Made by a program: the position numbers and the translations under genes
Shown: in pieces, positions 10,476-53,848 of the stretch
Position numbering within the stretch: the stretch's first letter is position 1
Layout: each line of letters starts with the position of its first letter
NCBI GenBank assembly: GCA_008632985.1
Contig: QPGO01000007.1
Location: forward strand, 558,001 to 622,000
Direction of reading: 5' to 3'
DNA: 64,000 nucleotides
DNA from: Psammoneis japonica
Lineage: Eukaryota
Notes under the pieces: model-generated
Seen by the model: only the letters and a program-made list of their open reading frames with translations
Told to the model about the DNA's origin: nothing
The model's database searches: none

Positions 10476-10492
10476 AGGGTGAGGTGGGTGGG

Positions 10493-11301: not shown

Positions 11302-12924
11302 TCACATGGCCTTGGTGCAACGCAGGAAAGAGGGTAAGAGAAGAGTGACGTCGGCATGGTGTTGCCTCATTTTGTGAGCAGGTTGAGCCGCCCCCGCTCT
11401 CTCCTTCTTTTTCCAACGGTTGACGACGTCAATGTCGTCTTCAGATGCCTTTTGAGCAACAGCACGAGAATCGGAACCCCTCTGGAACGATCGGCTTGCA
11501 TCATGTTTGTCCTGTGTGTCAGCAATGGAAGTGATGTCAGCCGCGAATAAACTTGGATGGTCATCGTAGATGTCTCCCAGCACTTCATGGAGAAAAGCAC
11601 CAAGCTCTTTGGTGGATGAGGCTTTCCCGTCCACATCCAACATGGCTGGTCCGCGCGTTCGACGACGTGACCAGTGTAACGACACTGCCGTCTCCACCCA
11701 AAATCGAAGGTTAATCCCAGAACTGGTTGCATTCACACTTGGGAGGAGGTGCTGCCGCTCCCCGTGTTCTCCCTTCACTAGTCCCAAAAGTGGGATCACA
11801 ACGTAATCCGCATGTCTTGGCAGATGCTTTCCCAGAGCGCCCAGGTCCATGAGTGGACCCTCTGGGCCCCGGAGAGACAATGCGTAGCTGGCAGCGAAGT
11901 GCAACCTGCAGGAGAGGTGCACGAATCTGTCCGCCTCTCCTGGGGCCCAAAGGGCCTTCTCCTCGACCCCAGGCATGAGGTGTTGCATGACATCCACTGA
12001 CATCACCCTGTCAGGTCTCCAGTCTTGACCCATCCACCTCTTGCAGCCCGTCATGAAACGTTGAAACCAAAGCGAGGCACACGGGTCCTCACACATTCGG
12101 AGACACTGCTTTCCCTCCAAGTCTCCCAACGCCAAGGCACGTGAGTTGGCTTGGGCAGAGGCCCGCACCTGATTAGAACATGCAGTCCGCAGTTTCCGGA
12201 TCGCATCAAATTGGGTGCATGACTCCGAGTGTTTCCCCACAGTTGCAGACGCCAACACTGTCTGCACAGCCACCTCGCACCCACAGTGGTCATGGGGCGG
12301 GAGAGGACCTGGCTCAAGGCAAGGACCTGTCAGGCCCAAACGTTCAGATAAAGTCAGGCCCCGCCCAACCCTGGCCGCATTCGCTTCGACTGTTGACGAC
12401 TCCCGGCTCCAAAAAGCGTCCAGGATCACGCGGCGGATGCAAGCCAGGGCGACCTCGTCTCGAGGTGATGACGTTGCGGGTTCCCTCTGGTGTGACTTGT
12501 GAAAAACACATAAATCGCACTCAAACGCCACCACAAGATGGTCTCCAACCCGGGCCTGCACGAACTTGTTCTTGTCCTGCTGCTTCCGGAACCAAGGGCC
12601 ATCATCCAACCGTGGCCGGTCAGCCCCGAGAGTTGGGGCATCGTCGTTTTGAGGGTCGTCCGTCAGGGTTCCTCCCAGATGGAACGTCACGCTTTTTCTC
12701 AAAGCACAACACCCGGGACACCACACCTTCCGACATGCCAGCCAGACTCCTACACTGTGCACAAAATTTGCGCAGAATGTGCCCTTCGTCCACCGCAGAG
12801 TCCGCCCACACTCGTCGCAAGGACCGGTCCACAGCATGCATTTTTGGGGTTCCCCGCAGCTGCCAAGGGCTGCAAGAAACAAACGGAAAAAGGAGACCAA
12901 CCAGCAATGGCTCGAACATGTCAC
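11302..12924 (-). pseudogene. Tyrosine recombinase of the retroelement; catalytic Tyr apparently changed to His
   Basis: YALSLRGPEG (catalytic Arg), PLLGLVKGE, SRSFQRG, VNRWKKKE and MRQHHAD, where MRxxY is expected. Only 3 Tyr in 540 aa. Overlaps the end of pol. Confidence 0.85.
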
Positions 12925-15900
12925 CTGGCCAGAACGACCTCGCTCCAGCTGGGATGGTGAAAACTGGGTCCGCCGCCTTGTGCAACTGCTTCTGCCACTC
13001 TGGTGTCATCAACCATGGGCAGACAAACACATGGAAGGAAGTCTGTTGTTTAATCCTTGCGATCCGGAGCTCTTCCAGAGCAGCCCTCGCAGCGGCCGGG
13101 GGCGGGGCCCAAACCCAAGTGCCTGACTTAAAATGGGGCATCTCGATTGCCTCGTGACTCAAGCAATTCCAGCCAGCAATGTCATGTCCCTTCTGATGCC
13201 ACTCCAAAGGGGCCAGTAACTCCGGAGAGGGGGTGCCAGCCCAGGATTGGATCCACGCGAACAGAGTGGAAGAGCGAGCGGTAGCTGCAAGATGAAGAGG
13301 TACGAACGAGAGCATCTTGGCGCCGTTCATCACCCCTTCCGACAATGCTCCCCGAGAAACCCCGTCCGTACCCTGAGCTGTCATCCGACCTCCCGAGACA
13401 TGTGTGAGATGTGGTCTAATCCCATGCTTGGCCTCCAAAGCTTTCAGCCGAATAATTTGCTCGAGCAGCAGAGGGCTGGAAGAGGTGCCCTTATACCAGG
13501 CGAGTTCAGCCACCGAGTTGTCTGTGAAGAAGAATAGACACGCCCCAGTCAATTCCCCTTCCTCTCCGAGTTCCTGGATGGCGTCGACTGTATTGGACAG
13601 TTCCTTCCAATTCGAAGAATTTCCCAGCTCGTCGTCTCCCCACACACCGATCCGGAAGATAATGGTTCCGTCCGATGCTTCCAGAGACGTGCTGAGACCC
13701 TTTCCGGACGCATCACCGAACCCGTAAAGGACAGCGACGATTTTCGAAGACCGAATGATTACTGTAGTGGGGGTTGGTGGCTCCATAATTCGGGACATTG
13801 CCACCAGATCCGTGAACAGGCGAGGGACCCCCGTAACCTGCTGAGGTGGTGGACGGTCCCTTAACCCCTCGGCGACTGCAGCCGGTTCTAACCCCTGCTT
13901 CTCGGCAAGGTGATGAGTCCAGCTTGCGCACTCTTTTCCGGTCATGGCCCAACCGTCCTCCTTTTGATTTGGTCGCCACGAGTCAAGGGTCAAATGAACC
14001 CCTTTCAAAAAAGGGGTTAGAAAGGCACAAGTCATCGCGAGGTGAACCAGAAAACCCCGTTTCCGCTCTAGATCCTTAAAGTCGAACACAGGGAGGAAGC
14101 CTTCGGCCTGATCAGCATGGTGATCAAGTAAATCAGAAATGACAGCTTTGGCTTTATCCCACTTGGCCTGGGATGCCGACTGAGTGACGTCCCTGTCGAT
14201 GACCCTGAAGATGGCACCCGCCCAGGCTCCGGTTTCGACCTGAGAAGGAGGGCGCACTTTTCGGGCCGCGTTCTGTAGACCGAGGTGCTGCAAGCGAGAG
14301 GCCATTTGATGGGCCACTTGCCATGCTGCTTCCTCGCTCGCTCCCACACCTCGTAAGTCGTCCACAAACGTTTTAACATCCCCCGCAATTTCCTCCTGAT
14401 GTGAATTCCACTTCATGACGAACGGTTTGTCCATCTGAAAATTTGGGTTCCCCGGCAAGTTGAGGATCAGCTGGTCACATCCCACAATGTTGGAAGGACG
14501 TTGGGGGTCGCCTCGGGCAATCTCGTCGGCCCAACAGAAGGCTCGAACTGCTGAGCAAGGGCTGGGGCGCATCCCCATGAACAGGCGGTTCCATCGTTCG
14601 AACCAGAGTGCACCCCCCGCAGGTGGCCCAGCCGTCGGGAGATGCGACCTGAGTGGGGTTAGGTCGATCCCCGCATGTGGCCGGATGGCGGGATCCATGA
14701 AAAAATTTAAGAACATGTCCCCGAGATCGAGGTCCACCGAGAAGGTGGAGTGGGTCATGCAACCCAGAACCGAGGCGGGGGTGGGCAAGAAAAAGGAGGG
14801 TGCCCACAAGGCATCATTTGATCCGGAAGAGGTCCCATTGTAAACCATCCGGACATCCTCCACAATTTCCACCAAACGCCCATTCTGAGGCTCGACCCGA
14901 ACAGTCTTTGGGACCCAGAAATGGTCCGTTGAGCTAATCACCTTACCCTGGCAGACACATCCATGGTCTCGGACCTTTTGCATCTTGTCCACCATCCGGA
15001 GGATCTCATGCTCTGCACCCCGGATTCGCTGACGCCGACGATTGCGGGGAAGGGGGCCTTGGACAAAAATTTTAATTCCATCCCGGGCACAAACCCGCTG
15101 TTCCGGTGTGGGCCATCGCCAAAAAAGGAGGGCAGAGCCTCGGTCCCAGTTCCACCATGAACTGGCCAATGCTTGTGTCAACACGTCCGCTCCAAGGTGT
15201 GCGTCAAGTGGCAAAGGTGGGAGTGGAGGGTGATGGTAAACCCCCCCCCTGAAGACGCCCCCTAGCGTCCCCAAAACACCGACGTTGAATGGCCAACCTG
15301 CCGGTCCACGTCGGCCCACACTCCTGGTGGAGGTGGGAGAGGAAGGATCAAAGAGTCCTCCGTTGCCACCATTGGTGGGTTAGCTCCCGGAGTGCAGGTA
15401 GAGCCTTCTCAAAAGCTGGAAACAGAAGGGTGATCCGCTTGTCCCACAATCGAAGCGGAGGCGCCGCCGCATCACCCTTGGCGGCTTTCACCATTGTCAG
15501 AGACACGTCGATCCAAGCATGCAGCAAGTGCTGCTGGAGGTCAGGTAGCCACGTTCCTGCATCACGATGCGCAACGTCAACAATGGCATCCCGATCACCA
15601 ACGGTGTCCCGATTAGCCACACCCCCCGGCCCTGACAAGCATTGGGGAGCGCCGGCAATGTGAGCTTCCACGAACAACGTGAGGAGGTTCAGCGGGACAA
15701 GCCCAAAACCCAGCTCCAAGGCTTGACGCACCGGTGGCATCCGGAAGCACAGAGGGAAATCCCAGGCAGCCAACATTTCATCCACAGAAAGAGCACGGGA
15801 GACCCAACCTGTCGGAGACCGACAAGACGGGTGCACGACCGGCCGGTCCAGGAACTGCGGATCAAGATGGTCAGCTTCCGTGTAAAACTCCCCCCGGGGG

Positions 15901-16472
15901 TGTTGGGGCGATGCCGACCCGGGTGGCTTGCAATCAATGATGTGCCCAATGGATCGGTGCAGGCCATCATCAAAGACCGGAGAGGGCACCCCGTGCCAGA
16001 ACATGTTTGTGCGGAACGAAGTGACACCCCCCACCACCACATGAGTGGTCTCCCGCTGCTGGAACTGATGAAGCCCAAGGAGACTGCGCCCAAAAACTTG
16101 TCCCATGGGGATCATGACAAATGGTGAGGGTCGGATGACGTGCACCATGGATTCAAGGAATGACGGTGGACCCGACACAAAGGAGAGGTTAACCTGGGCA
16201 GCAAGATGCTCCACGCTCGACCAACCGACCTGGGCCATGGACGCTCCTAGCTGGCTTTGGAACACATCCACCAAGAGGGGACTCCAATGGGAACAGTCAG
16301 CGTTGTCTGAACAGAAGTGGAGTGTGGGCCATTCTTTTGGTCTGAGGGACAAAAGCCAAATTGGGGGACCGGAGGAAAGCACTGGACATGCTCCTTGAAA
16401 AGAGAAGGCTTTACGGCCTCGTGTGACATGCCTTAGATTGTCAGGCCTGTCAACCGAGACCAGACCCTCCAA
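12620..16472 (-). pseudogene. pol of the retroelement (N-terminal extension + RT + RNase H), interrupted by a TGA at ~15348 and a frameshift near a C-run at ~15245
   Basis: RMVYNGTSSG, DLDLGDMFLNF, MGMRPSP and FVDDLR (RT). YGFGDASGKG, SSNWKEL, FTDNSVAE and QGTDGVSRG (RNase H). Confidence 0.9.
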
Positions 16473-16496
16473 CGGTTCCTCCGCTCCCCATGGGCT

Positions 16497-18959
16497 TCAT
16501 TTCTTGTTCTCAAGAACCTTGAGGCGCCGCGTTAGTTCCTTCACTTCCATCCGCAATTTCCCAAGTTCCATGTGAGCCGAATCCCCCCGGGCCTGTGCTG
16601 ATTTTGCCTCAGAACTCGCGTTCTTGGCTTTCTCCGTCAATGTCTGGACCGAGGATTGCAAGTCTGTAACTGCTTCAAAACCTGAGTTGGTTGCGAGGAA
16701 CTTGATGCATTCGGACGCCATCGAGGGGTGATCAGCGAAACCCATGGAAGTGCACTCCACCACAATGTCCTGGGTTCTAAACACAGCCCACAAGATTTTG
16801 CTGCACACAGCGTCCGGGTCCGTGCCTGAAATAGAGGTAAAGACCCCCAAGCGCGCCTTGTGAATGTCCTCAAAGATCCGATGGGTCAATTTTGAGGTCA
16901 ACGACCACGCTTGCTTGTTCGAGAATTTGCTCAGATCAGTGAGGGAAGCGCAAGTGGAGTCGATGAATTGAATCAGAGCACAAAGGAAAGCCACCGATTT
17001 TGACAACGCGTCGCGCACCACCTGGCCCTCAAACGTGCCCGGTCTAATCCGTTGATTGATGTCCTCCACAACGTCATTTTCCGTAGAGGCGATTTTCCCC
17101 TCAATGAAATGCTTGGTTCCCACATTGCCAGACGACCAGTGTTCACAAGACTCGACCTCATCCAGGCAAGAAGGATGCAACCCCAAGGTCTGGGCCGACT
17201 TTGCCGATCCCGAGTCAAAAATCCGAGGCATTCAGCATTGGAAACCAGCCAACGTTCTCGCGTCTTCCTCGGTCGCGATGTTCATGCTCATTCGCTTGGC
17301 CCACTGCGACAAAAAGTGATGCAGAGCGGTGGGCTCGATTCCCTTGATCCGGTCCAAGAGCAACACGACATCGGTTGAGCACCCATGCGCCCTCGAGGGG
17401 AAATGCTGTGTCATCCAAGCTTGACACTCCTCGTAGGATGACACGCCAACCCCCGAGAACTCAATGGCGGACTTGTCCGATTTTGCTCGTAATTCACTCA
17501 CAGCACGGTCTAGACGAGTGAGGCGTGTGTCCACGGACCCTTGATCAAATGAAACACCTGGAGGTGCAAACCCCGAACCACACTGCGATTCGATCAACCT
17601 GACCTTGGAAGTGAGCTGCGTGCAAACCCGAAGCATGTTCTTCTTCATGTTCTCCAGATCCGTGCGGCCAGCAGCAGATCCCAACCGATCTTGCATGCAT
17701 TGGAACCTCTCGTTGAACGTCCTCACCAGATTGTTGGATTGAGTTCGCCACCCCGTCTCCACTTGCGTGACACGCTCGACCAGGTCCGGAACTTGGGTTC
17801 CGCTTTCCCTGGATGCCACGTTCGCCAGAGCACCCCAAAGAGCAGGGGCGAGCAGAGTCTCGTCGAACCCCTGGGTCGGCTCCCCCAGAGCCGCGTCTAG
17901 TTGATCCAGCTTCCGACTTAGAATCTCAACCATGGACTCCGCAGCGTGGAAGCACTTGCCAGCTTTGTTGCCGAAGTCGGCTGGTGCCTCCCCGGCTTGC
18001 CTCAACCCATCCTCGGTCGATTGCACCACACGGGCCAACGCGGACGGACTTTTATTAGCCGCCAGGAACTGCGCAGGGGCAGCGAGCATTTGTTTTTCGT
18101 ACGGCGTGAACCTGTCCAGGACGGTGTCTTCTTGAGGAGTCGACGGCTCCGGCCACTGTTTACGAGCCGGTGTCTTGAACTCGGCCGCTCTTTCATGCTC
18201 CCCAAGGGCAGGTTCGACCTCGTCCTCGGTGTAAAAGGGCTCACCATTGCTCAGGACCAAGAATTTTTGCCGCCAACCGGCTGGCGCATCCGACTCGGCT
18301 TCCCACTTGACCAAAACCTCACCGGACATGTTCGCGCCGTTCAGGATGGGTTGGCAAAATCCCGCATCCGGGGACTTGAGAATTGCCATCACACCCGACG
18401 CCGGAATGTGCATCTTGCCGCCCTTGTGCTTCACGTTACACTCGCTTGCCTTCTTGAGACAGAAGGTGGCTCCTCTGCCCTTGATCCCTGAGCACCGAGG
18501 TGCTCCAACAGTCTCCAGCCAGGTGATTCGATGACGAGGCACATGCGAGGACAAAGAGGACGTACCTTCCCCCTCCGACTCGACCGCACCTCCGACATCA
18601 CCTGCTAAATCCCGCCCAAAGAAACCAACCCAAGACAAGCGGGTTTCCCTCTGAACCGGGCGGGATGCGTCTCCTTCCAAAACGTGAGTTCCTGGAGGGT
18701 GGGAAATGACTTCCCCTGGCTCCGCTCTGTCAATGTCCGATTGGGGATGACCAAAACCCCCCGAAATGTCATCGCTTGTGCCCCGAGGATTTAAGCCCTC
18801 GTGACCCCCCCCCTGACGCGCAGCCCCAGAAGGGCGAGCCTGAGGAGAGGGAGCCGCCGGAGAGCTCAACGAGAAGGGCGAGACAACATCCAACTCGAGT
18901 TGATGAGCTAAATCAACGAACGCATCATCTGAGACACCCGAGGCAAAGAAATCCGACAT
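16497..18959 (-). pseudogene. gag-like ORF1 of the retroelement with one in-frame TGA at 17232-17234
   Basis: The 575-aa and 244-aa ORFs are in the same frame and abut. Cys/His cluster (CSG..FCLK..CNVKH) and C-terminal coiled coil. Starts just inside A1. Confidence 0.8.
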
Positions 18960-18971
18960 GACAAGAGAGAC

Positions 18972-19219
18972 TAAAAAAGAGTGATGCTTTTCCTGGCTTG
19001 TGTGATCCAGTCACGTTGATCAGGGTTCCTGTTCCAATCAAGCTGGAAAAGTGAGAAAAGAGAGAACCGAAGTTTGACCGGTCACAGTCGGAAGACTGGA
19101 CTGGGTCATCTTGAGGCGGAAGTCCCATGCTTCCAAAATGGATCAGGCGAGAGGTCATGGTCACAGCGGGGGGGTTGATTCGAGTCAGTCCGTCTCCATC
19201 TAAACTTGGGCATGAGGAG
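18972..19219 (-). repeat. Split direct repeat A1 (5' end of element)
   Basis: Colinear with 10493-10739. Confidence 0.95.
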
Positions 19220-20900: not shown

Positions 20901-20917
20901 CAGACGTGCCGAGAAGC

Positions 20918-25329: not shown

Positions 25330-26429
25330 TTTCAATTTTCTCGTGCAAAGCAAAATCTACGAGCTACTGTACATAGGGCCTACCGGTATAAAAAATGCGG
25401 GAACAGAAGCCAAGCAAGAGTGAAATGATCATATTTGATCATTAAGATTATTTATGATAGACCGTTTTCTGGCGGTTTTTGGTTGCTTCGGTTGAGTCGT
25501 GCATGGGGCGACCGATGATGGACTGACGCGGTGTCTCCGGAGCTCGCTCTACGGCCGGCACAAGCTGGCTGCTCTGCGCCGAACTACCGGTAACTTCGCA
25601 CTTGCGAGCACACTTGCACATTCTTCAACCTGCCACCTGCGCAAGCAAGGAAAGAGAGCATCAAAGAAACACTCTGCAACATTGTTGTGCCACACACGCA
25701 AAGAACCTCTCTCTGTGTGTGGTGTGGCGCTGGCACAGCATGTCGAGAGATCATCGCCTGGCCCCAGCAGCTGAGCCCCCACCTTGTTGTGATGTGGGTC
25801 GTTGCTGGAAGCAGTGCCCAGACCAAGGGAAATGCAAGAGACACTGATGCATTGAAGACAAGACATTGTGGATCCTGACATGGTGGACTTGGTGACTTTT
25901 TATGAGTGAAATGTCATCATCACTGATTTCACCTGCGTTTCAGCAGTTTTTGTCTCTTTCTTTGCAGCAAAGATTCATCTTGTGTTCACACATTTGCACT
26001 GTGGCACCACCAGGTGCCTGTTGCATTGCAAGTTTGAAATTTGTGTTGAGAACTGCCAGGCAACCTGCAGCCACCACAAAGCAACCAGGGAGAAAGTGCA
26101 GCGAGAGCAACACAGAAAGCCTTGCGGCGTTCCCTTTTGGTGATGTTGACTTGCCAATTGACGCTCACTGCACCAAAGAGTTGCTGGAACTGCATTTGGT
26201 GATGCTTGCAGATGCCAACCTCCAGCCACACAATCACCAAACATTGGAGCACTGCATTGTGAGCAGCAGAGGAGAAGGCAGATCAAGTGGTGTCGTGGAG
26301 GGCAAGGTCACAACTGGGGCAGCAGAGATTGCAAAGGTTGCAAGTCTTCCTGCAACAAGAGCAAGAAGACTGACTGGAAAAAGAGCTTTTAGCCTGAAAA
26401 AGACATCAAGGAAAAGATTGTCCATTGCA

Positions 26430-27620
26430 TGCAGAAGAAATGTGGCCAAGGCATTCATCTGGTGAGATCTCCAGAAGAAATGAAATGCAAGGATTGTGTC
26501 TCCAAAGAAAGGCCTGCATTGGGCACACCCAAGACACCAGCACCAACTGACACATTGGACAGAGATTGCCAAGCCAAGTTGGGCCAAAGATTGTGAGGGA
26601 AAAAAGGAGCCTGGGTGCAAGCACAAGGCACCAAGCCATGTGACTGCAACAAGAAAGTGAGGAAGCTCAAAGAAAACAAGACTGCTGTGTTTGCCACTGT
26701 CTCAGATGATTGCTGTGCCAAGCCAGTGAAGAAGAGAGTGCAGGCTGATCCCAGTTTCCAAAGTGACTGTTGGGGATCAGCCCCTTGTGCTTGACTCCAT
26801 GAGAGGTTGACATCTGTTCCATGCACTCACCAAGTGTCACTGAAGCACATGTTCTGGAAGTGAAGCAGCAAGAAAGTGAGTGCCAAAGTGTTTGCCACTG
26901 TCTCAGATGATTGCTGCGCCAAGCCAGCAAAGAAGAGAGTGCAGGCTGATCCCAGTTTCCAAAGTGACTGTTGGGGATCCAGCCCCTTGTGCTTGACTCC
27001 ATGAGAGGTTGACATCTGTTCCATGCACTCACCAAGTGTCACTGAAGCACATGTTCTGGAAGTGAAGCAGCAAGAAAATGAGTGCCAAATGACTGCCTGT
27101 CAAAATTTTGGGAGTCAGCAAGATGCAGCAAGTGATGGTCCAGGAAGCAGGATGCCAGACGGATTCATTCAGAACACCAAGGAGTGCAAGAACTGTGCTT
27201 CTGCAATGGACAGAGATGTGCCAAAGAAAGCAGCACTCAAGACATGGACTGTGCGTCTGTTCACAGAGAACAGCAGTGACTGTTTCTGCAAGAGCACAAA
27301 GAAGAGCTTTGTGAGAGATTGCAGCCTGGGTGAGGATGTGCACCCAAGGACCCCAAAGAGGAAAGCAACGGATGTGTTGCTGAATCATCCAAAGGACAGT
27401 GGCCCTTGCAAGCAACACAGCAAGAGGAACAGTGAGGGTTTGAACAACAAGAACAACAATGATGAAAGGTGCAAAGACAAGTCCAACAATCAGAAGGACC
27501 AGAGTTGCACCCAGAAAGGCAACCAAGATGACACAGTGGTGTGTCACTGCTGTGTTGAGCAAAACCAAAAGTCCCCAGACTGCAGACACAATCACAGGGA
27601 ATGGTGATTGCAACTTGCCA
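26430..27620 (+). mobile_element. Degenerate Copia (CoDi-like) gag fragment
   Basis: NKKVRKLKENKTAVFA resembles the gag at ~39850-39910 (NKVKKFKENKTAAFA). Also DCSLGEDVHPRT..ATDVLLNH and a decayed zinc knuckle CHCCVEQNQKSPDC. Confidence 0.7.
26687..27089 (+). repeat. Tandem duplication, 2 x ~201 bp, within the gag relic
   Basis: ttgccactgtctcagatgattgctg...gagtgccaaa occurs at 26691 and again at 26892. Confidence 0.9.
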
Positions 27621-34615: not shown

Positions 34616-37600
34616 CACTCCTGCTGCTCACATTGATGTTTGCTCATCATGCCAGTTGTTGCAGCCCATTGGGTGCATTGGCAGCCTTCATGCTTGCATC
34701 TTTTAATCCTGAACAATGGCGCATGTGGACATGTTGCCCATCATTGGAGAAGTTGATCACATCATTGAATGAAACAGTGATCCCCAAAACTGTCTCCACA
34801 CAGCATGCAAGACATGTTCATTGCACCTTTGCCAACAGTGCATTTGCACAGAGACCAGCTGACTGTTCCCCAATCCACTCAAGGCTTGCTTCTGGAGCCA
34901 GTTCAAATTGCTCCATCCTGTGGTGCAAGTCCATGTCAGCTTCATCTCATGACAGAAGAATGTTGCTAACTTCCATCCAATTCACACAATGCCATCACTG
35001 TCCCATGAAAGCCCATGTTGGCTCATCACTTCTTTTTGATCATCTCTGTTAAATTTCACAAGGGGACCAAAAATCCTGGACAGGTCCATGCCATGTGGTG
35101 CAGGACATCCGGTCCACATTTGATCACTCAAACTCTCAACATGATCTGCTCTGTCCAGGGTCAATTTCACATCATTGCCCTGGATCCAATGATGCGCTTG
35201 TCCTTGATTGAGTCGTCATTCTCATTTTGTTCCTCACAGTGGGAACAACAACCACACTCTTGCACGAACACTTGGCTGCCAATCACTTGCCAGCCTCTTT
35301 AGCCCTGTGTGATTCCCGCGTGTGCTTGTTGACTTCTCTCACTGCATCCACATTGTCATGCATGGAAAACATCAGTGCGGCAGTGGTCACATGCGCTGGA
35401 ACATGTCTCAGGAGTCCAGTCCTTGATGCACTCACCAACATGCAGCACAATTTTCTGTCTTTTGTTCCATGGGACATGCCATTTTGTTGCTGGGGTCAGC
35501 ATCTTGGTGTGCACAAGCACCCTCCTTCCCCCTGCACATCTTCTTCATCCAGGGCCAGTTGGTGCAGATCTGGTGCATCATGGTGGAGGTGTGGACTGGT
35601 GGACAAACTCTTCTTTCCTGCCAACAACCATCATTGTGGCTCACTGTGTGTGTCATTGAATGCTGCATCTTGACTCTTTCTCAAAAGACACCTTCCTTGT
35701 CCAATGGATGCAATGGTCCATCCATTGATTGCAGTCTTCCTTCTGCCACAAGGGTCTTGAACTTGCAGCAATGGTTCACACTGCCTTTTTGAGATCCTTG
35801 TAGACTCTCATCCTGACCAAACAATCCTTGGGCCATTGTTGCATTGCCGCATCATTGAATGCATCACTTGCATCATCAAACATGTTGTTGATGTCAGCAC
35901 TGACCTCTTCCATGGTCCATGCAACTTCTTTGGAGAACAAATCACCACAAATGCAAATTGTGTTTTCTCAGTGCTGAGACATCACCAGCCTCTTGTTTTT
36001 CACAGGGATCTTTCACCCCCACACACATCAGAATTCTTGTCTGACATCACAAATTGCCCGCGCATTGTTTGTGCTCACCTTCTTCTCTTTTGCAACCCAC
36101 AAAACAACTTGCTTGAAATTGCCAAACTTCTTGCCCTTCAACAGCTCAGTCATGAAGTCCCCCAACATGTTGTCTGTTGGACAGTGCTCCGCTCTTAAGT
36201 TGCCTTTCTCAATCTGGTCTGTTGCAAAAAATGTCAGATGTTGAGCACCCTGGACTGTTTTCCTGCACTTTTGCATCATCCATCAGTCTCCAGTGGAACA
36301 GAGCTCTTGTTGTTCCAATGTGGGACATTTGTGTTGACACTGTGTGTCCTTGGTGTTCCATGAAAAATTTGGTCCATGAAATCATTGGCACCAACCAGCT
36401 TGGCCACAGTGCTGCTTTGGGTGTTTGGCTTCTGGCACTTGGACATGGCTTGTGCTGCACCATTGGCCATGAGGTCATCTTGCCTCCAGCGTGGCTCTTG
36501 AAATCCAGGTGTGCCACAAATGATGCGTCCATGCACCACTTGATGACATGGTGGAGGAGGTCTTTTGTGCTTGTTGCGGCAACTTCCTTGTTTCTCGTCT
36601 GATTCAAACTCTTGATGCAATGGACTGACTTTCTCCAATCCTTGTCAGCAGGTTCTCCAACTCTTGAGCATGATGCTGCAATTGCAGGGTGTGCATGTCC
36701 ATGTGGCCTCTCTTGGATGGGAACAGTCCTTTGGCCACCCATGTGTGGAATGCCTGTGCATTGTTGTTGGCCTGTGATCCAGGGAGCTGCCTGATGCAAA
36801 CAGGTTCTCTTCTGCTGGTGCTGCAGCAGTGTGGTGGGTGCTCTTGATCTTGACCTTCTCTGGGAGCTGGTTGACCATCTTGTGCATGCAGTGTGTCATG
36901 TCAACCTTCACCTTGTCTTTCCTGCTAAAATCTGGGGTCATCCCCAGGCAGTTGCGCTTCTTTCTTCTGGCTCCCATGCATCTTGTTGAGCCAACTTGGG
37001 AATTTGTCATTGACCTTGGGTTTCTTGTAGCTCAAAAGCAGATCGTCCACATAAAATTGGATGGTGTGCTGTCTGCCATTTGCTGTGCAATTGGCAATGC
37101 ACAGATTGCATGGGTTGAACTTCAACCCAATGTTCTCCAAGTCTTTGTGGAATTGTTTGCACCACAGCTGGGCTGCTGCCAGCATCCCATGTGTTGCTCC
37201 AATGACTTGGACACAGAGGACTTTTTCCCTGTTTCCATGACCTTGTGTGATCTGCACAGGTTTGGATTGATGCTCACTGACATGTTGACCAACACTCTTG
37301 CAATCTCCATCATGATCTGGTCTTCTCCCTCCTGAGGTTCCAGCATCTGTGTCTGGATGAACGCATTTGGAGCATCTGCACCCACAATGTGATGCCCTTC
37401 TTTGGTGTTGACAATGGCCACCATCACAATTCCTTCAAGTGATGCCATTGGACTGGCTGACTTGTCTTTGTCTGGCTGTTCTCTGGTTGGCTTCCCTTTG
37501 CAAACCATTTGTCCTTTCATGTGACCATCTTGCTTCTCAGTTGGGAACATCAGGGCAACCATGGTGCCCTCTCCCTTTCTGTTGAAGTCATTTCTTTGGC

Positions 37601-40430
37601 TGATGCAGGTGCAAAGCACACTCTGTTGTGGAGCTGTCTAATCTCCTTTTCTGAGGCATCATGTCTTTGTTGGTCAAAAACCTTGAAGCCTTCATGCAGC
37701 AGGTGTTGCTGGGTGAATGAAATGGTGCCTGCCCTCTTGCAATCTTGCTTGGTCATTGATCTCACACATGAACTGTGCTGCCATCACCAATCCTGCTTCT
37801 ACATCACATTCCATGTCCTTCTTTGGGTCAGGACTCACATTGGTTCACAGAAGGTGGCAGCATTCAAACTTTTGGGCTGTTTCTGTCTGTCTTTTTCAGC
37901 ATCTGCCACTCCTGAAAATTGAGCTCTCAATTCTCTTTGAGTGGTTTTGAGTTTCTGGTGGTGTGCCAGCACCACTGTGCAGGATCTGGCACTTCCAGTC
38001 TGTTTCAGCTTGAATTGCTCTATTTGTTTGTTTCCATTTTTGATGCATTCTCATCTTCTTCTTGCTCTTTGTCTCATTCATTCTGGCCATTGCAATCTTT
38101 GTTCTTGTCTTTGTGATGCTGAGCTGGGCTTGACCTTTTGCCCACTGGGATGTTTTGAGCTTCTTCATGACTGTCGTTGGAGTCTTCTGCTTCTTCCTCT
38201 TCTTGTTCAAAATCTTTGTCATCTGTTGTCACATTTCCAGTTTTGTTTTCTCACTTTCTTTGCATTTGTCATTGCTTTTGTTGCTTTTGATGTTGCTTTG
38301 CTGTGGTCCACTCCCACAGTCCAACCAGCATTGCGCAGGTTGTCCCACCAGCATTTGCCTGCATGATTGAACTCTTTGTTGCTTTTGACAATGGCCATTT
38401 TCTCAACTGCACAGATGTGTGTGTTGGTCAGTGGCATCACGGTGCACCTGCAGGGGTTCAGTGGCTTGCCCGCATGCAACTTCATGGCAAGATGTCCATT
38501 GGTGAGTCACAGCAGGGTTGTGCAGGCAGATGCTGTCAATGCCATGTGTGTCCACAGTGTCAAGCAGGTTGGGCTTGGCTTGGGATGGGACAAACTCTGT
38601 AAAGGAGAACTCAAAATGTTTGTCACAGGTGAGGTTCTTTTGTTGCACAATGGCTTGTGGGCTGCAGGTGTCTGAAATTCCCTCCTTTTGTGGGTGCATG
38701 TTCAACATGACTGTTTTTTTTTTGTCTTGCATGGCAAATGGTGCAGAGTTGCCTGAGTTTGCTCTTTAACAGCCTGGGTGCTCCTCTCAACTTTGGGAAC
38801 ATTGTGATCATTGGCATTTGTTGACATTGGCGCTGCTGTGGGCCCATGCCATCTGCAATGGCTGCCAGACAGCATGTCCTTGGTGAACTCCAGGTAACAT
38901 TCAATGAAATCAACAGTTTGTGTTGTGTTGCTGCAGCAAAATCACATCCAATGCCTTGTGTGCATTGGCACAATGGTTCTTGGACTTCAGCTTCACACTT
39001 GATCTGCACTTGCTTGATCATCTTGTCCATTGCATGCAGCATCTTGACTCTGCACACTTCCACAATGTCAGTGCAAATCATCATGCCTTCTTTCTGCTTC
39101 TTGTGTGTTTCAGGTGGTAAAGCTGCAATGTCGTTCCTCTCATGGGAATGGTGCGTGAGTTTTGTCTTTCCTTTTAGTGTGTCTGTTGGTGGTCCCCATC
39201 ATGTGTCCACCATTCTGTCCACATCTTCAGGCACAATGGTCAGATTCTTCACCTGCTTTGATTGTAAAAACAATTTGGTGTCCTTCAAACTTGGGGCTCC
39301 AGCTTGATGATGCAGTCTGAGTGCTTTCTTGGCATTTGCTGCCTCTCTCTTGGAGTGGCGGCCCTTGGCATTTTGTTCCACTGCAGGAACAGCAACTCTG
39401 AACAATGCACCTGTGCACTCCTTTTTGGCAGCTCTCTTCAACAGCATGTTCACATGCTTCTCTTGCTCTTTTGCAGCTTTTCAACACAGTCAAAGAATCT
39501 CTGACTTAGGGCAAATGTGTGCAGTCCAATGTTGTCAGCTTTGAACACCACAACTCTGCTCCCAGTCTTCTTGTCAAGCAGTCAGAACTTGTCCACTGCT
39601 CTGCAATCACAAGTCATGCAGTGCTTGTTCTTCACATCCTTTAAACCAAGGACATTTGCCACTGCATTTTGCTGTCTTACATCAAGGATGTTCTTCAGGG
39701 CCTTTGTGAGTGCATGGAATGGGTGTTGACCTCTCACAGAGTTGGGTGCAAGGGTCTGCATTAACTTCAGCAATGCAATTGGATTGTCTCTCATGGACTC
39801 AAAATCAGGAGTGCCTTGTGATCTCTGCTTCATCTGTTTCAAGCAGCAGTTGTTTAAAACCTTGGCAAATGCAGCAGTCTTGTTCTCTTTGAACTTCTTG
39901 ACCTTGTTGTGTCAATCATTGCAGTCTTGTTTGTGCTGCATCTCCACACCTTTGTCTTTGTTGGTCTCTTTGATGAGTTGGTCTTGATGTGTGGGTCTGA
40001 TGCACTGGGCAGAATTGTCTTGGATCCTTCAGATGCTGCTGGCATCTCATTTGTGAAGTCCTTGCACTTCATGTTCTCAATGGATCTCACCAGATGCACC
40101 CCTCAATCACACTCCTTCTCTGCATGTCAGATGATCTTCTCTTTGGCTTCCTCAGGAATTGCTGTTCAGCAATGAAGCAGGGCAAAACTTCATTTCAGAC
40201 TGAAAGTGTTTCTTGTCACTGGTCTTTGTCTTCTTGTTTGACATCCTGTGACTTCCGTCACCTTTGCCGCAACCACATCCTTGGCCTTGACAGTTGGATC
40301 CACCTCTCCCTGTCTGCCACTCATTGTGCAAGCATTTTGATGTCTCAGTGTTGGCAACAGTCTTCCAGCAAATGAGTGCCAAACTCAGCACTCATGACTC
40401 TTTAGAGTGAATCTTAAGCTTCAAAGCCAA

Positions 40431-40766
40431 TGTCTCCAAAAGAGAGTCCCATGAGGTCTCCTGAGCAACTTGTTGCACTTGCTTGGCAGTCTGTGTTGGC
40501 TGTGGTCTGCCTGGGTGTCAATGTAAATGCAACAATCACCAAAATGACAGGTGTCCTTGACACCACTCAATGGTGATCATGTGAACCAAATGCTTCACTC
40601 CAAAAAGTGCTGAGGATAAAAACACATGTGCAGGGAATGTGGTGATGGTCATGATCTCATCAAAGAATGTCTCATCAGCTGCTCACATCAGGGTCAATGT
40701 CCTTCTCTTCAAATCATCCGGGTTGCAGGCAATCACATCTGGGTCACTTGTCTTCTCAGCTCAACA
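40431..40766 (-). repeat. 5' LTR
   Basis: Aligns with 34189-34615 and is adjacent to the PBS-like motif. Confidence 0.8.
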
Positions 40767-41463
40767 GCTGCACCACATGCAGTTTTGCCCCCCCCCCCCC
40801 CCAGAAAGCAGCTTTTTGCAGTCTGCAGCAATGCTTTCTGTGGCAAAATTGCTTGTAAAAAAATGTGGTTGGCGCTCTGCTGAGCTGCTGCACACACACA
40901 CACAAACACACACAACAATGATGACTTTTTAATTTTTAAACTTCTGACAGCTGCAACAAAGAGTGCTTGGCACACAAGCAAATTTTTTTTTTTGCTGTTG
41001 GGTGCAACTGGGAGCCACAAATGGAGAGAGAAAAGAGAGAGAAAGGCCCCATGATGTGACAGTGCTGCTGCGGCATCATGTTGAATCCAGCATCACAAAG
41101 AAATTACCTCACCTTTCTCTCAATGTTGTTTTTTTTCTCTCTTGTTGCATTGCACTGCCACAGAGCAGCACAAAGAGTGACTGGTGGGGCCAACAAGGAA
41201 GTGAGAATGGCTTTTTTGTCAACAGATTGTCGCAAGGAGCATGTGGTGCTGCCGCGCAACTTGAGCTTGCTGCTGCTCTTGTTGACTGTGCACACTTCCT
41301 CTACAAAAACTCTTGGGAGGGGTTGGCAACCTCCTCTGATGCTGCAAAACCCCAGCAGAGGGCAAGTGGTGGATGCTGCTGTAGCATCTCTCCCCAACCT
41401 TCGAAGAAGTCACGTTCAGATTGGTGTGGGTGTGTGCTTTGTGTGGCCTTTGCTTGCTTGTGG

Positions 41464-41750
41464 TGTTGAACCACCAAAAGGAAATCCCATTGGGATTTCT
41501 GTGTTGCTTGTCACACTTGCCTTGTTGTCTGTGTTGGCTGTGGGTTGCCTGCAGTGTCAATGTGCGGCCTTCAAACCAAACCAAAACACGACAAGTGTGT
41601 CTCTTGAGAACGAATGACAAATCATGCAAACCAAATGATTCACTCCAAAGAGTGAGAACAAAACATGACAATTTCCAGTGAGAGATTGACAATGTCAGAG
41701 ATTGCTTCAAGTGGAGTCATGCTGCAGGCCACGTTGGAGGTCAAACATTT
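41464..41750 (-). repeat. Diverged solo LTR related to the Copia LTRs
   Basis: Shares cacttgccttg, tgttggctgtgg and atgattcactccaaagagtgagaa with the LTRs. Boundaries approximate. Confidence 0.6.
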
Positions 41751-42226
41751 GTCGAGTGTCTTTCCCTCGATTGACCCTGGGTTCTCTTCTTGTGCACCCC
41801 AGTGCTCCAACATGTGGTGTGCGATGACATGCATGGGGCTCACCTGGAATACATTGCAATGCACATAGAAACACACAGAAGATGACAGTAGAATCTATGC
41901 AAAGCTGGCTGCGTTTGAGGCACTTCCCTCTTTCCTTTGGGGTGTCTAGACCTAAAAGAGGCAACCCACTGGGACAACCAGACAAAAAACCCTCATAACC
42001 TCGATCTAATGGGCCGTTGCCGGTCGCCAGCATACCGTACGTACCGATCTTGATGCCGACCACCTATCAGACATCACATCATCTGTGTTGTCACACTTCC
42101 ATTGATCCTATTAGAGTCTCACCAAGTGCATTCTTTTGCTGTGCAAGGTAACAGCAAAGGACTGCAGAGTGGAAAAATTGAAGAGTGTCGACTCCTTGTC
42201 GAAAATACTAGTCTGGAAAATCAACC

Positions 42227-49004: not shown

Positions 49005-50870
49005 ATGTCGTCTTCAAGCGACGGCACTGATAACACAAATGGCACCAACCAAGTGCCACCAATGCAAGACAGCAATAATGGTGGTATGCCTTATGATAAG
49101 GACATGGGGCTTGTGCCAACCCCTCACCTCTTTGATCAAAAGCTGTTCATGTCCTTGCATGTTTGTGACGGCGAAGAACTGTCTGCAGAAGAAAAGACGC
49201 TTGCGGACGCGAGCATCATGTCAATGAAAGTGGCCAGTCTCAGATCTCTTTGCCATAAGTGTAAGTGTGTTCGTGATGACAATCCCACACCAAAAAACGT
49301 TTCCACCACAGGCAATTCTGGCCACTTGAAGAAGCGTCTGATGACGTGGTTCTGCGTCTTCCGGCAGGAAGAAGCATGCATCGACAAGTGCCCCTTCAGC
49401 GCTTCCAAGAACTGGAGCCAGGCAGAAGATTCTCGCATCATTGAGATTTTAAGTGACCCGACCTTCCAGAAACCCCTCCAGCACCTTCACCAAAAGGCTC
49501 CACGTGTTGTGCTTGACGAAGGCGACCCGCCCCTCATGTCTGTGTGCCGACAATTCGTTGCTGTTTTGTGCAACAATTTTGACAAGTACAAACCAACCCA
49601 TCGGTTTCCAGATGACCCACTTCTCAAAGCCTTCAATCCCAATGACAAGACCATTTCTTCCCGTGCTCCAGATGTGTTGAAATTGAGGGTTGGACAGCTT
49701 CGCAGCAGGTTGACAGTGGCGCACAAGGTCGGCACGAAGAGCGGCTCGGATCCGGAAGGTTTTGAGAATGCTCTTGATCTGACTGACCCACTGGACCAAT
49801 CCATTCTCTGTTGGTGGAAGGTAATTGACCGAAATGGTGATTCATCTGTTCTCAACAAGTTTGCACGCCTCCTCCCAGGTGGCTGTGGCGTTGACTCGTC
49901 GGATCCCAGCACCATTCAACGCAGCCTGGACGCCGCCAACTCCATCTTGCGCAGCAGGGGAAAGGGTGACAGCTCCTCCAGCAAGTCACAGAGCATGTCT
50001 GAAAGAATCTTGAATGCAGTCAGTGAGATGAAAAGCGACATGATGAATGAGGAAAACAAGGAGAACATGTTTTTCTTGCAGCAGAACAGAGACCGCGCAC
50101 AGAACAAGTCGGAGCGACTGGCCGACGAGATTTGGGCCATGAGGTGTGGAAAGGCTGGTGACTTGAGCAAGCGTGAGAGAAAGATCAAGCAGCACAAAAG
50201 AGCCCGGAGTGAGTGCGAAGAGCTTGAGAAAGAGGTGGCGAAAGCGCGAAAAGTTGAGTTGGACAGCGACATTGAGCACGACGACGCTTCTTTTCTTCTG
50301 TCTGTGCCATCCAGCAGCGGCGACGATGAGGTGAGTGCCTTGTGTGTTCTTTGTGCTGTTTGTGATGTCAATGATTTGCACCAACTCAACCTTTGCTGCA
50401 AACACAAGAGCCGCCAATGCTGCGCAAGGAACAAATCCAGGGAAGTCTCTGCGGGGAACTGCTCCGATGGCCACGACCGAGGGAATGAGTCTACAGAGCT
50501 GGAAGAAGATGTCCAATCTGACAGCAAGAGCGATTCACGCAATGAACCAGTGCACTGCGGCTACATAGAATGCAACAAGCGGAATGAGCCGGTTGGAACA
50601 AAAGACGAGGCGGAACACCACGATTTCAACTGCTCGGATTTGGGTTCCTGGTCTTCAAACATGTGCTCCAACTTTGAACATTGTGGGCATCACTTGCATC
50701 GTGTTGGTTGCAAAGCTCACCTTGACGAAGATGACCCTACTTCCCTGACTTGTGGGCACCCTGATTGCACTGGCGGGTCGGAAGTTTGTGCATTTGCATC
50801 GTGTGCCAATGTGGACAACAACACCACGGATGGTGATTTTCCGTCTTCAGACAGCAGTGAGTGGAATGTA
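49005..50870 (+). pseudogene. Harbinger accessory Myb/SANT-like DNA-binding protein; probable intron from 50331; 3' end uncertain
   Basis: NWSQAEDSRIIEIL trihelix-like motif and coiled coil. GTGAGT donor at 50331 is read through in the ORF track. Tyr-poor and Cys/His-rich. Confidence 0.7.
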
Positions 50871-50899
50871 ATGCATTTAACACCATTTACAGAATCACA

Positions 50900-52430
50900 G
50901 CTTTCTTATGGTACAACTTTTACTTCTACAACCCTCCAGCCAGCAGATCCGAATCGGCATTTATGCATCGCAACGATCCCGCAGGTGCGCGCCAAAATCT
51001 TGTGGTGCGTCTTGCTCAAGTGGGCGTTGCTTTAGAAGAAATAGGAATTATGGCACAGTCAATGGCAATGACATCATCTATAGAATAAGAGCTTTCTAAT
51101 GATGTTAATTTTATTTCCATGCCCTCAGCAGATCCGAATCGGCATTCAGATGTCCTGCCGACCCCGGTTGCGCGCCAAAATCCCAGTGCATTTTGCTCAA
51201 GCAGGTGTTGCTTTATAAGAAATTGGAATTGTGGCACAATCAAAGGCAAAAACATCATCTATAGATCAAGAGCTTTCTGATGATGTTAGATCTGCTTCCA
51301 CACCCCGAGCAGATCGGAATCTGCATTCAGACATCCTACCGACCGGCACTTGCGCACCCGGGTCACATTGCGTTTTGCTTGAGCAGGTGTTGCTTTAGAA
51401 GAAATTGGAATTATGACACAATCTATAACAATAACATCATCTAAAGAGCGAGAGCTTTCTAATGATGATACTTTTATTTGGATACCTCTAGCAGAACCGA
51501 ATCGGCATTCAGACATCTTACCGATCGCGTAGTTGCGCTCAAAAATCCCAATGCGTTTTGCTCAAGTAGGCGTTGCTTTATAAGAAATTGGAATTATGGC
51601 ACAATCAATGGCAATAACATCATCTATGGATTAAGAGCTTTCTAATGATGTTAATTTTATTTCCATACCCTGAGCAGATCCGAATCGGCATTCAGATGTC
51701 CTACCGACCCCGGTTGCGCGCCAAAATCCCGTCAAAACGCCTCTCGCGCAATGCGTTTGCTTAACTAGCCGTTGCTTTAAAATAACTAGGAATTATGGGA
51801 CAATCAATGGCAATTACATTATCTACAGAACAAGAACGAGGGCTTTCTAATGGCACTACTTTCATTTCCATACCCCAAGCGGATCCGAATGATCAACAAT
51901 CGGCAACCCGTAGAGTTGCGCGCCAAAATCCTACTGCGCTTGCTTAACTAGCAGTTACTTTAGAAGAACTCGGATTTATGGGACAATCAACGGTAACTAC
52001 ATTATCTATAGAACAAGAACAAGAGCTTTCTAACAGTGCTACTTTCATTTCCATACCCCAAGCAGATCCGAATCATCAACAATCGGCATTCTGACAACCA
52101 AACAACCCCTGTTTTTGGCGCCAAAATCCAATTGCGTTTTGCTTAACTAGCTGTTGCTTTAGAAGTACTTGAGCTTAGGCAATGAAAAATGGCAATAAAA
52201 TCATCTACAGGACGAGAGCTTTCTAATGGTATTACTTTCATTTCCATGCCACAAGCAAATCCGAATCTGTGTTCAATTATCCAAATAACCCGTAGTTGCA
52301 CGCCAAAACCCTGCTCTACGTGCTTAACTAGCCGTTGCTTTAGAAGAACTAGGAATTATGGGACAATCAATGGCAATTACATTATCTGCAGAACAAGAGC
52401 TATCTAATGGTTCTACTGTTATTTCCACAC
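50900..52430. repeat. Tandem array of ~8 units of 181-199 bp inside the Harbinger element
   Basis: gcttta(g/t)aagaa anchor recurs at ~51029, 51210, 51392, 51576, 51775, 51957, 52156 and 52338. gcagatccgaat and agagctttcta recur in register. Confidence 0.92.
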
Positions 52431-52488
52431 ACACATCAGATCGGTTCTCTAGTTGTGATTCGATGCCATCGATGCCGACACCGCATTT

Positions 52489-53848
52489 CTGCCTGCGAGG
52501 TGGGCGAACAATGTTGGCAGTTCTCAATGAATCTGTGATCTGTTCCCGAATTGGACACTGCCCATGATGCACCCGTGGGATGGCTCTGTCTTCAAGCCAG
52601 CATTGGTCCATGGGATGCAGGTTGTGGTCGTACCCCATGGGCTCGTCTGAGGAAAGGAATGGCTCACCCTGTCGATGCTGACCCGGTCCGGTGTTGACTG
52701 AAGGAACGTACAATTCATCATCATCAACACCAAGGTCTTTCAGGAAATTGTGCAGACGAAAAATGGATTGAATTGCCACCGGACACCTGCGCAATGGAAA
52801 AAGCAAAGGACGCCAAAAAATCCCAAACTTCTGGCAGACATTGCCCCACATGCGCTCAATGCAATTGTGGTGGCCTTTGTTCAGACAAACAGTTGAAGGC
52901 ATCCTTGTGTGGCTCACGCTCTGCAAGCCCAGTGCCTGGCCATGGACCAACCCGATTTGCACCACAGCCATGAGCCTCATCCAAAGAGATGCAGCAGTGC
53001 CTCTCGGTGCCTCGACACTTGATTCGTGTTTCATTCTCCCATCTTGTGGCTGTGGTGCACAATTCCCAAGCTGTCCTGTCATGAGCATTTCCTGTGGCAT
53101 GGACGTCCAACACTCGACACTTTAAGACTGCATCTGCAATCGCTTGAACACTGATGGCTGGAAAACCCTTCCGATTGACATGCGCCATTGGATTCTCGCA
53201 TTCATCGCTGCCTGGCATGCGAATTCTCACAGCACATCCATCTCCTGCTCCCACATGACCAATGTGCAATTCCGGAAGGTTGTTCTTGTTTTGTAAAAAT
53301 TGATTTGCCAAGTGTCGCAGCTCTGGCTCTGTCGTGGGAAAATGTGCAGTGCCAACACCGGCTTCAACAATGGCTTTGAAAAAATCAAACAACGCACCCT
53401 CCACACTCGTGTGACCCAAGCCAAAAGCAAAAATGAGACCATCCAAAGAACAACCTCCAGACCCCATGCAGCCGAGATGCACCTTTTCATCGACCGCAAG
53501 TGGCCTCCGGTCGCAATCCTGTCGGCCGGCCATGTTGGCATCCGACAACTTCGGCTTCAAGTGCGGACACAATTTGTTTCGGAGGCACTCCATGGTGTGT
53601 GGAGGCATTCTGAAAACAGTTGCAAATTCTCCGGTGAGCAAGGAGGCACAGCGTGAATCGAGCAAGTCCCGAAGCATGCATCTCGCATGAGAATGCTCGT
53701 GTGATGATTCTCGTCGTTCAATGGCATCAGCGTGCAGACACAACACAGCAATGAGTTCTGCCAATGGAGCCATCCTCTTTTTCTTTTTCCTTGGTCTCAT
53801 TGCCACCAATGCATTGAGATCTGGTGCATCTTGATCAAACGAAGACAT
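52489..53848 (-). pseudogene. Harbinger DDE transposase (DDE_Tnp_4/HARBI1-like); frameshift at ~52885
   Basis: VGAGDG, NRKGFPAISVQAIADA, GNAHD, LDEAHG, IERMWG..KFGIFWRPL and RLHNFL. Zero Tyr in the 330-aa ORF. The original stop is possibly the CAG at 52491-52489. Confidence 0.88.

Follow-up and report, generated by a model that had tools for sequence, protein, structure and literature searches.

The subject of the present study is a window of 64,000 nucleotides from Psammoneis japonica (GenBank assembly GCA_008632985.1, contig QPGO01000007.1, positions 558,001 to 622,000 of the forward strand), in which host genes lie among transposable elements and their relics. The host genes code for an alternative oxidase with EF-hands, a mitochondrial carrier, a SET-domain protein and a MATH-BTB protein, and the Atlas cluster closest to the alternative oxidase consists chiefly of Bacillariophyta. 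The elements include a DIRS-like retroelement on the minus strand at 10.0-19.2 kb, made up of upstream open reading frames (ORFs), a reverse transcriptase (RT)/RNase H ORF, an overlapping recombinase ORF and bracketing repeats, together with a block at 48.9-54 kb that holds a Harbinger/PIF-type DDE transposase, and older relic islands. We consider it probable that the transposon DNA was locally mutated from TpA to CpA or TpG, nearly to saturation and on both strands, after its insertion, and that this process ended at the borders of the elements.

TA-poor domains of the window

The observed/expected ratio (o/e) of the dinucleotide TA was computed for each 500-base bin. It drops to 0.00-0.25 in sharply bounded domains, against 0.4-0.85 in the host genes, and the domains fall into two grades according to the state of CG (Table 1). 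In the islands of grade 2, CA and TG are raised 1.5- to 2.3-fold. By our own threshold the TA-poor segments add up to 31,950 of the 64,000 bases, a total that counts three short host-gene stretches which may be due to chance. The initial annotation had given positions 11302 to 53848 as the span of the finding; this span also holds unmutated host genes and does not stand as a unit.

Table 1. Coordinates of the TA-poor domains, element genes and relics in the window
Feature	Position	Strand	Basis or remark
Grade 1 domains	10.1-19.3, 49.1-50.9, 52.4-54.0 kb		TA lost, CG mostly retained (CG o/e about 0.6-0.9)
Grade 2 domains	19.3-20.9, 25.5-31.0, 33.8-41.9, 54.0-56.3 kb		TA and CG both almost absent
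Repeat pair of DIRS-like element	10027-10326 and 10739-11038 (10027..11038)		ungapped cores compared
Tyrosine-recombinase-like ORF of DIRS-like element	11302..13005	-
RT/RNase H ORF of DIRS-like element	12620..15379	-
Three upstream ORFs of DIRS-like element	15348..19010	-	one frame, single TGA codons between
PHD_NSD weak match	19596-19898	+	E 0.0029, 18.3 bits
TA- and CG-free relic island with DCSLGEDVHP frame	25476..31000
TA- and CG-free relic of a long terminal repeat (LTR) retroelement	33751..41950	-	weak RVT_2 match and decayed LTR pair
RVT_2 weak match	36928-37434	-	E 0.0049
Second ORF (ORF2) of the transposase's TA-depleted block	49026..50330	+	homologue P0285
Open tail of ORF2	50331..51035	+	234 codons past homologue end; 14.5% His+Cys
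Read-on of transposase frame	52324..52467	-	codon listing and homologue ends
Harbinger/PIF-type DDE transposase gene, TA-depleted	52468..53797	-	tblastn of 12 homologues in two frames
TA- and CG-free island adjoining the transposase	54000..56300		no family found

Conserved tyrosines in the element proteins

Homologues were placed on the window by tblastn. A column was counted if it was covered by a minimum of 6 homologues in the transposase, 30 in the RT and 40 in the recombinase, and if one residue made up at least 50%; the rest were dropped. For the transposase, 12 public homologues were found (best identity 68%), and all of them carry PF13359 (DDE_Tnp_4) in precomputed annotation. The window gene itself scores 20.9 bits for this domain, below the cutoff of 24.8, and the homologues that were rescanned (4 of 4) score 39-54 bits, so that the catalytic domain of PIF/Harbinger transposases is recognised through the homologues. 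Reading the gene requires two frames, which are separated by a break near 52886. Its ORF 52856-53911(-) codes for 351 amino acids with 19 His, 18 Cys and no Tyr, in agreement with the absence of tyrosine noticed at the outset. Where Tyr is the majority residue of the homologues (12 columns), the window reads His seven times, Cys three times and Tyr twice, with every His or Cys codon being CAY or TGY. The motifs AHVNRKG and DEAHG had been singled out early for a His in the usual place of Tyr, and the homologues agree, with Tyr in 9 of 12 and in 12 of 12, respectively; the latter Tyr adjoins the conserved D-x-A.

The second ORF of the same block, ORF 48948-51035(+), has a single homologue, P0285, with 55% identity over 433 residues. 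In ORF2 the 15 Tyr of P0285 correspond to four His, four Cys, four Phe and one each of Tyr, Val and Ala, a count that depends on this one homologue sequence. No Pfam family was found for ORF2 or P0285 at E<=0.01, and nothing relevant for ORF2 at E<=5; the former label of this ORF as a Myb gene is therefore unsupported, and the intron assigned to it was not borne out either.

In the DIRS-like element, the translation of the RT/RNase H ORF contains the motifs FVDD and DAS. It has 733 homologues, one of which is named Fragilaria crotonensis, and PF00078 was present on one of 120 among the matches listed. The 13 Tyr-majority columns of this ORF read Cys in four cases, His in three, Phe in three, Trp in one and Tyr in two. 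The column at 13996 is weak evidence, because His is also frequent there among the homologues (53/116).

The recombinase-like ORF has 2,423 homologues at E<=0.001. Pfam left this family unmatched, intact members included, and a PDB sequence search with a profile of 51 recombinase sequences returned as its sole match an irrelevant protein of 118 amino acids (E 0.012). Since these sequence searches came back blank, a fold search was needed. The AlphaFold2 model of homologue P0133, which is 45% identical to the window ORF, had a predicted local distance difference test (pLDDT) score of 89.3 and a predicted template modelling (pTM) score of 0.81, and Foldseek with this model gave XerH, Cre and lambda Int as top matches (probability 1.00, E from 6.8e-5). 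Judged by the model, the family probably has the two-domain fold of Cre, Xer and lambda integrase. The family alignment holds an almost invariant R, K, R-x-x-R-R, W and Y, in that order. From the order of these motifs, and from its place in a C-terminal helix of the Cre-like fold, we infer that the near-invariant C-terminal Tyr would be the nucleophile of the recombinase.

The window copy, ORF 11302-13005(-), has 3 Tyr in 567 amino acids, in line with its first description as Tyr-poor. MRQHHA had been placed at the catalytic tyrosine, and its second His (CAT, codon 11358-11356) does stand where 86 of 88 homologues have Tyr, the likely nucleophile. In addition, a CAG codon for Gln at 11482-11484 occupies the place of an Arg that is conserved in 91 of 96 homologues, which is a CpG-type change. 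With His at the Tyr and Gln at one Arg, this copy lacks the presumed C-terminal nucleophilic Tyr of tyrosine recombinases. Over all six Tyr-majority columns it reads His in three, Cys in two and Tyr in one. Another genomic copy, present in the contigs of a public run (X1), carries C at 11357 and A at 11358, so that this codon is TGT (Cys) and not CAT (His) as in the window. Furthermore, a public predicted protein of this family, P0147 (full-length, 459 amino acids), carries His at the near-invariant Tyr and contains 3 Tyr and 9.4% His+Cys.

It could be argued that such His and Cys forms are active enzyme variants maintained by selection. The ORFs are long and open, P0147 shares the His at the near-invariant position, and the RT column with a natural His alternative would fit as well. 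We find this hardly credible, because the near-invariant Tyr is kept in nearly all homologues (86/88), P0147 is itself Tyr-poor (3/459) and Cys/His-rich, which is what a further mutated copy would look like, the frame of the transposase is broken, and the loss of TA is common to non-coding DNA and to all six frames.

When the columns of the transposase, the RT/RNase H and the recombinase were pooled, Tyr was retained in 5 of 31 Tyr-majority columns, compared with retention of the majority residue in 723 of 927 other majority columns (Fisher p 1.3e-12). His or Cys was found in 22 of the 31 and in 22 of the 927 (Fisher p 1.3e-25), and the His and Cys codons at the Tyr-majority columns are CAY or TGY without exception. 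The direction from TAY to CAY (His) or TGY (Cys), which the initial annotation had proposed, is thereby seen at conserved tyrosines of homologues. The median Tyr content of the homologues is 2.1% for 120 RT sequences and 2.7% for 150 recombinase representatives. The relic at 34-42 kb, whose Copia pol gave a weak sub-threshold match, is not part of these column-by-column counts.

Among all conserved columns, 230 are changed in the window, and in 38 of these the reversal of CA or TG to TA restores the majority residue. Tyr makes up 22 of the 38, the others being Thr>Ala, Val>Ala, Ile>Val/Met/Thr/Ala, Leu>Ser and Asn>Asp. Identical base changes outside TpA explain 10 of the 230 despite a larger number of sites (214 vs 140), and reversal at CpG explains 16. 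On this comparison with homologues, tyrosine loss is the dominant legible effect of the erasure of TpA and not its entirety, and the bulk of the differences from the distant homologues is ordinary divergence.

Open frames, strands and timing

By a change of TpA to CpA or TpG, TAG becomes CAG or TGG, TAA becomes CAA or TGA, and no sense codon is converted into a stop. Counted in six frames, TAA and TAG together amount to 3.2 per 1000 codons in the relic islands and 5.4 in the elements that have lost only TA, compared with 18.1 in the rest of the window; the corresponding values for TGA are 23.4, 18.5 and 19.1. The earlier view that TAA and TAG are erased and frames stay open holds to the extent that these two stops are 3 to 6 times rarer, but TGA persists. 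ORFs of at least 150 amino acids occur at 1.76 per kb in relic islands, 1.43 in TA-only elements and 0.95 in the rest, and the excess in the islands is understated because real genes contribute to the count of long ORFs for the rest. In translated ORFs of at least 100 amino acids, Tyr falls from 2.24% in the rest to 0.34% in TA-only elements and 0.10% in relic islands, and His+Cys rises from 5.5% to 7.2% and 11.2%, in the same order. At the end of the transposase gene, the frame reads on for 46 codons beyond the C-termini of the homologues and stops at a TAA (52324-52326) inside TA-normal tandem repeats. The CAA at 52453-52455 is merely a candidate for the former stop, as the C-terminal tail is too diverged to assign it.

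In the four young ORFs, about 2,270 codons are read without an in-frame stop (transposase 443, ORF2 435, RT/RNase H 919 and recombinase about 470). The proposal that elements are killed by missense and not by nonsense changes is only partly right. It agrees with the absence of stops from these ORFs, but it does not cover the frame break of the transposase, the split pol of the DIRS-like element and the older islands, which are laden with TGA and with frame breaks. The pol region lies in two frames. Its third upstream ORF (15348-16496) is joined to the RT in long homologues, and 85 of 120 homologues among the matches listed are long enough to hold both parts as one protein. A length difference of one base at 15241, seen in other copies (contigs of run X1), lies outside the frame overlap at 15348-15379 and so does not by itself explain the split. 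Inside the DIRS-like element there are five stops, and all of them are TGA.

The risk that such relics are annotated as Cys/His-rich genes, foreseen at the start, is real, since long frames of this kind are in excess (1.76 vs 0.95 per kb) and P0147 is itself a public prediction, which means that gene callers do collect such frames. A small trial of the proposed screen for Tyr-poor, Cys/His-rich proteins gave 2 proteins with less than 0.8% Tyr, including P0147, among the 282 public homologues examined (12 + 120 + 150).

On the coding strand an A>G change replaces Tyr by Cys, and on the template strand it replaces Tyr by His. Across the four ORFs the ratio of His to Cys is 17:13 (binomial p 0.58); both strands are hence equally affected, in the DNA transposon and in the retroelement alike. 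The repeat pair of the DIRS-like element adds direction and timing at the level of DNA. Its two copies differ at 26 bases, which belong to five classes only: TA|CA (4), TA|TG (5), CA|TG (6 sites, 12 bases), CG|TG (3) and CG|CA (2). Thus 21 of the 26 mismatched bases are TA-derived and 5 are CpG-derived, and neither transversions nor further kinds of transition occur. For the CA|TG sites, the best interpretation is a single ancestral TA that was resolved differently in each copy, and these sites place the mutation later than the formation of the repeats, with the element already in position. Apart from the five CpG-derived bases, the changes are restricted to TpA, lead to TpG or CpA and affect both strands, as is characteristic of TpA hypermutation.

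These observations also bear on ADAR-like editing, in which A-to-I changes in element transcripts would be reverse-transcribed into DNA and the copies would arrive already mutated. The change is from A to G and several of the affected elements are retroelements, as such editing would lead one to expect. It is nevertheless highly unlikely, for the DNA transposon with its DDE transposase and the neighbouring ORF are equally affected, editing of a single transcript would yield one class instead of His and Cys at 17:13, the repeats within one inserted element differ solely at TA and CG sites, and the non-coding flanks are likewise free of TA.

A passive context bias deserves more weight, although we still regard it as unlikely. 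In that case, errors of repair or replication in silenced, methylated chromatin would favour transitions at TpA and CpG, no dedicated mutator or defence function would be required, and the loss of Tyr would be incidental to age. The coincidence of TA and CpG loss in the older islands and the presence of both classes in the repeat pair agree with this, and no enzyme was identified in the present analysis. However, TA o/e is 0.1-0.25 in elements whose CpG o/e is 0.6-0.9 and whose long ORFs are intact; TA nearly gone with CpG and long ORFs kept means that the process is fast and far outruns CpG decay. Of the 26 mismatches in the repeat pair, 21 are TA-derived, and apart from the CpG-derived ones no further transition or transversion is seen. 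Furthermore, a preprint on TpA hypermutation in Bigelowiella natans gives a rate about 1000-fold over background, in some lines only (Mettrop et al., bioRxiv 10.64898/2026.01.13.699255).

A technical artefact was also considered, in which base-calling or assembly errors at modified bases cause TA to be read as CA or TG and CG as TG or CA. The domains probably do carry modified DNA, and the sole public run that holds the stretch is possibly the source sample. We regard such an artefact as very improbable, because the X1 contigs reproduce TA-free stretches of 594, 700 and 1083 bases with 0 differences, each site is fixed as either CA or TG with a choice that differs among copies, and P0147, a separate record, shows a like loss of Tyr. 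In B. natans, the same signature was obtained with Illumina data (10.64898/2026.01.13.699255).

Several points weigh against mutation of the elements at TpA as we read it. The direction of change depends on protein homologues of 25-68% identity and on repeats within the window. Four of the 31 Tyr-majority columns read Phe or Trp, and TpA loss leaves 192 of the 230 changed conserved columns unexplained, ordinary divergence being large. The frame break of the transposase and the split pol could each alone have killed their elements. The step from loss of tyrosine to loss of element activity is one that we infer; functional damage from the Tyr-to-His changes in the recombinase and next to D-x-A in the transposase is plausible. 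Run X1 is possibly the sample behind the window assembly and is hence no independent proof against a sample-level artefact. Finally, a host-gene duplication of 2-4 kb with 91-95% identity and a 181-bp tandem array at 51006-52492 show no depletion of TA.

The older islands carry the same signature in a more decayed state. In the relic at 33751-41950, each frame has 71-94 stops over 7.7 kb, and a decayed LTR pair lies at 34259-34338 and 40491-40570. A Pfam search of the 138 stop-to-stop ORFs (at least 75 amino acids) of the TA-poor islands gave two weak sub-threshold matches only, RVT_2 and PHD_NSD (Table 1). A further weak and sub-threshold match, Endonuclease_7 (19.5 bits), was seen at 53624-53791(-); the matches to Cys/His domains (Endonuclease_7 and PHD_NSD) in TA-poor frames may be by-products of the enrichment in Cys and His. 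The RT motif of the Copia-like relic, FYVDDLLLSY at 37027-37056(-), has retained both Tyr codons, which account for 2 of the 37 TA dinucleotides remaining in 34000-41500. In the same relic, a strong AT skew (-0.26 to -0.32) was noted at 36001-40000, and CA o/e is 2.3 vs 1.65 for TG at 38-40 kb; skew and CA excess point to some strand asymmetry there. The string DCSLGEDVHP, which the initial annotation had called a Copia gag relic, is present in ORF 27005-27604(+), but this ORF gave no Pfam family at E<=5 and no usable Atlas hit. The name Copia gag is unsupported for this frame, as neither Pfam nor Atlas matched it to a retrotransposon gag family.

Around the DIRS-like element, repeats 10027/10739 and 10493/18972 form the brackets. 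No integrase was seen in it, a negative that is limited by the upstream ORFs without family assignment. An X1 contig (depth 30) links 10027 to 19226 and omits 9198 bases, that is, the entire element, with five other letters at the joint, whose shorter side is merely 44 letters; it may reflect a join mediated by repeats, or an empty site on the other haplotype. Along the alternative oxidase gene (8401-9724), an X1 contig and the window differ at 17 of 1324 positions, which suggests a second haplotype or strain in the run. In the transposase block, a repeat scan at the settings used gave no long inverted repeat around 48.9-54 kb. Codons containing TA reappear at about 52452, exactly where the transposase gene ends, and the array of 181-base repeats, which lies between both ORFs of the block, has a TA o/e of 0.64-0.87.

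A host segment with the mitochondrial carrier gene and an ORF of 361 amino acids is duplicated at 21019-25272 and 30936-33448. The two copies flank the TA- and CG-free island at 25.5-31 kb, are 91-95% identical and are both TA-normal. Seven sequence pairs from this duplication show 2-14 transversions each and an ordinary mutation spectrum, and duplication by itself does not seem to trigger the process at TpA. In addition, ORF 58082-59200(-), with a GIY-YIG nuclease domain and two CCHC zinc knuckles, has a normal TA content and may be a mobile-element gene that was spared from mutation.

Relation to known systems and meaning for algal genomes

Repeat-induced point mutation (RIP) of Neurospora and other ascomycetes places dense transitions in a dinucleotide context in repeats and transposons and disables them, much like a defence. 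RIP changes CpA to TpA, raises TA and AT content and turns CAA, CAG and TGG into the stops TAA, TAG and TGA. The process described here is a functional analogue with opposite polarity, as the first reading of the window had held: TA is removed, GC goes up and no stop can be created by the change. In place of the TpA excess and new stops of RIP, we see a shortage of TA, a rise of CA and TG by a factor of about 1.5 to 2.3, and fewer TAA/TAG. Furthermore, unlike in RIP, no dependence on duplication was seen, the 91-95% identical host duplication being unaffected. The CpG decay of methylated transposons results from deamination of 5-methylcytosine. The older islands resemble it, with CG changed to TG or CA, Arg to Cys, His, Gln or Trp, and CGA to the stop TGA. 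However, CpG decay leaves TA untouched, and in the young elements CG o/e is 0.6-0.9 where TA o/e is 0.1-0.25.

The closest parallel is found in B. natans, for which Mettrop et al. report TpA hypermutation of integrated giant-virus and virophage DNA (bioRxiv 10.64898/2026.01.13.699255). This preprint describes de novo A-to-G/T-to-C changes exclusively at TpA in mutation-accumulation lines, proposes an ADAT2-like deaminase, and lists DDE endonuclease and reverse transcriptase domains and a zinc-finger motif as enriched among TpA-poor coding sequences. Both systems change TpA to TpG or CpA on either strand, and TpA depletion with an excess of CpA and TpG is limited to foreign or repeat DNA. B. 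natans is a chlorarachniophyte with viral inserts, whereas the present targets are transposons in a diatom-like stramenopile; its viral region has an o/e of 0.45, whereas the domains here are near saturation (0.00-0.25), with CpG loss coupled in the older islands. The words 'tyrosine' and 'stop codon', and diatoms, find no mention in the preprint's main text, and the coding read-out described here, namely loss of Tyr and of stops, is absent from it. It was the only description of TpA-specific hypermutation found in a literature search. A full-text search for erasure of TpA or tyrosine loss in diatom transposons found none, with the abbreviation TPA partly obscuring the results.

By analogy with B. 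natans, the agent may be an enzyme that deaminates adenine in DNA and is directed at silenced or foreign DNA. Once the elements are in place, A:T would be changed to G:C at TpA on both strands, and TAY codons would become His (CAY) or Cys (TGY). TAG would always be lost and TAA half the time, TGA from TAA still being a stop, and sense codons would never become stops. Young elements would then be disabled mainly through missense at conserved tyrosines, including the presumed nucleophile of the recombinase, with their frames remaining open. Later CpG decay (CGA to TGA, Arg to Cys, His, Gln or Trp) and indels would bring stops, and the relics would still give many long Tyr-free, Cys/His-rich frames on both strands.

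The fingerprint at the protein level, with Tyr replaced by His or Cys as CAY or TGY and TAA/TAG missing, gives the direction of mutation without ancestral DNA, and the ratio of His to Cys is a ready measure of strand symmetry. By these means the process was seen on both DNA strands and in a DNA transposon, beyond retroelements and viral inserts. It accounts for the long ORFs that dead elements retain and for domain scores that drop under the detection thresholds, which bears on algal annotation and repeat masking. More tentatively, and with considerable doubt, we suggest that a TpA mutator acts as a stop-free, tyrosine-deleting genome defence that fills algal genomes with long Cys/His-rich open frames. 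If this is true, such frames would be a systematic source of false gene models and of spurious zinc-finger-like domain calls, and they may explain the zinc-finger enrichment that the B. natans preprint gives for TpA-poor coding sequences. They could also serve as raw material for new Cys/His-rich genes. A screen of proteomes for Tyr-poor proteins is cheap, and one with limits of Tyr below about 0.5%, His+Cys above about 9% and a TA o/e of the gene under 0.25 would in that case map the process in eukaryotes at large.

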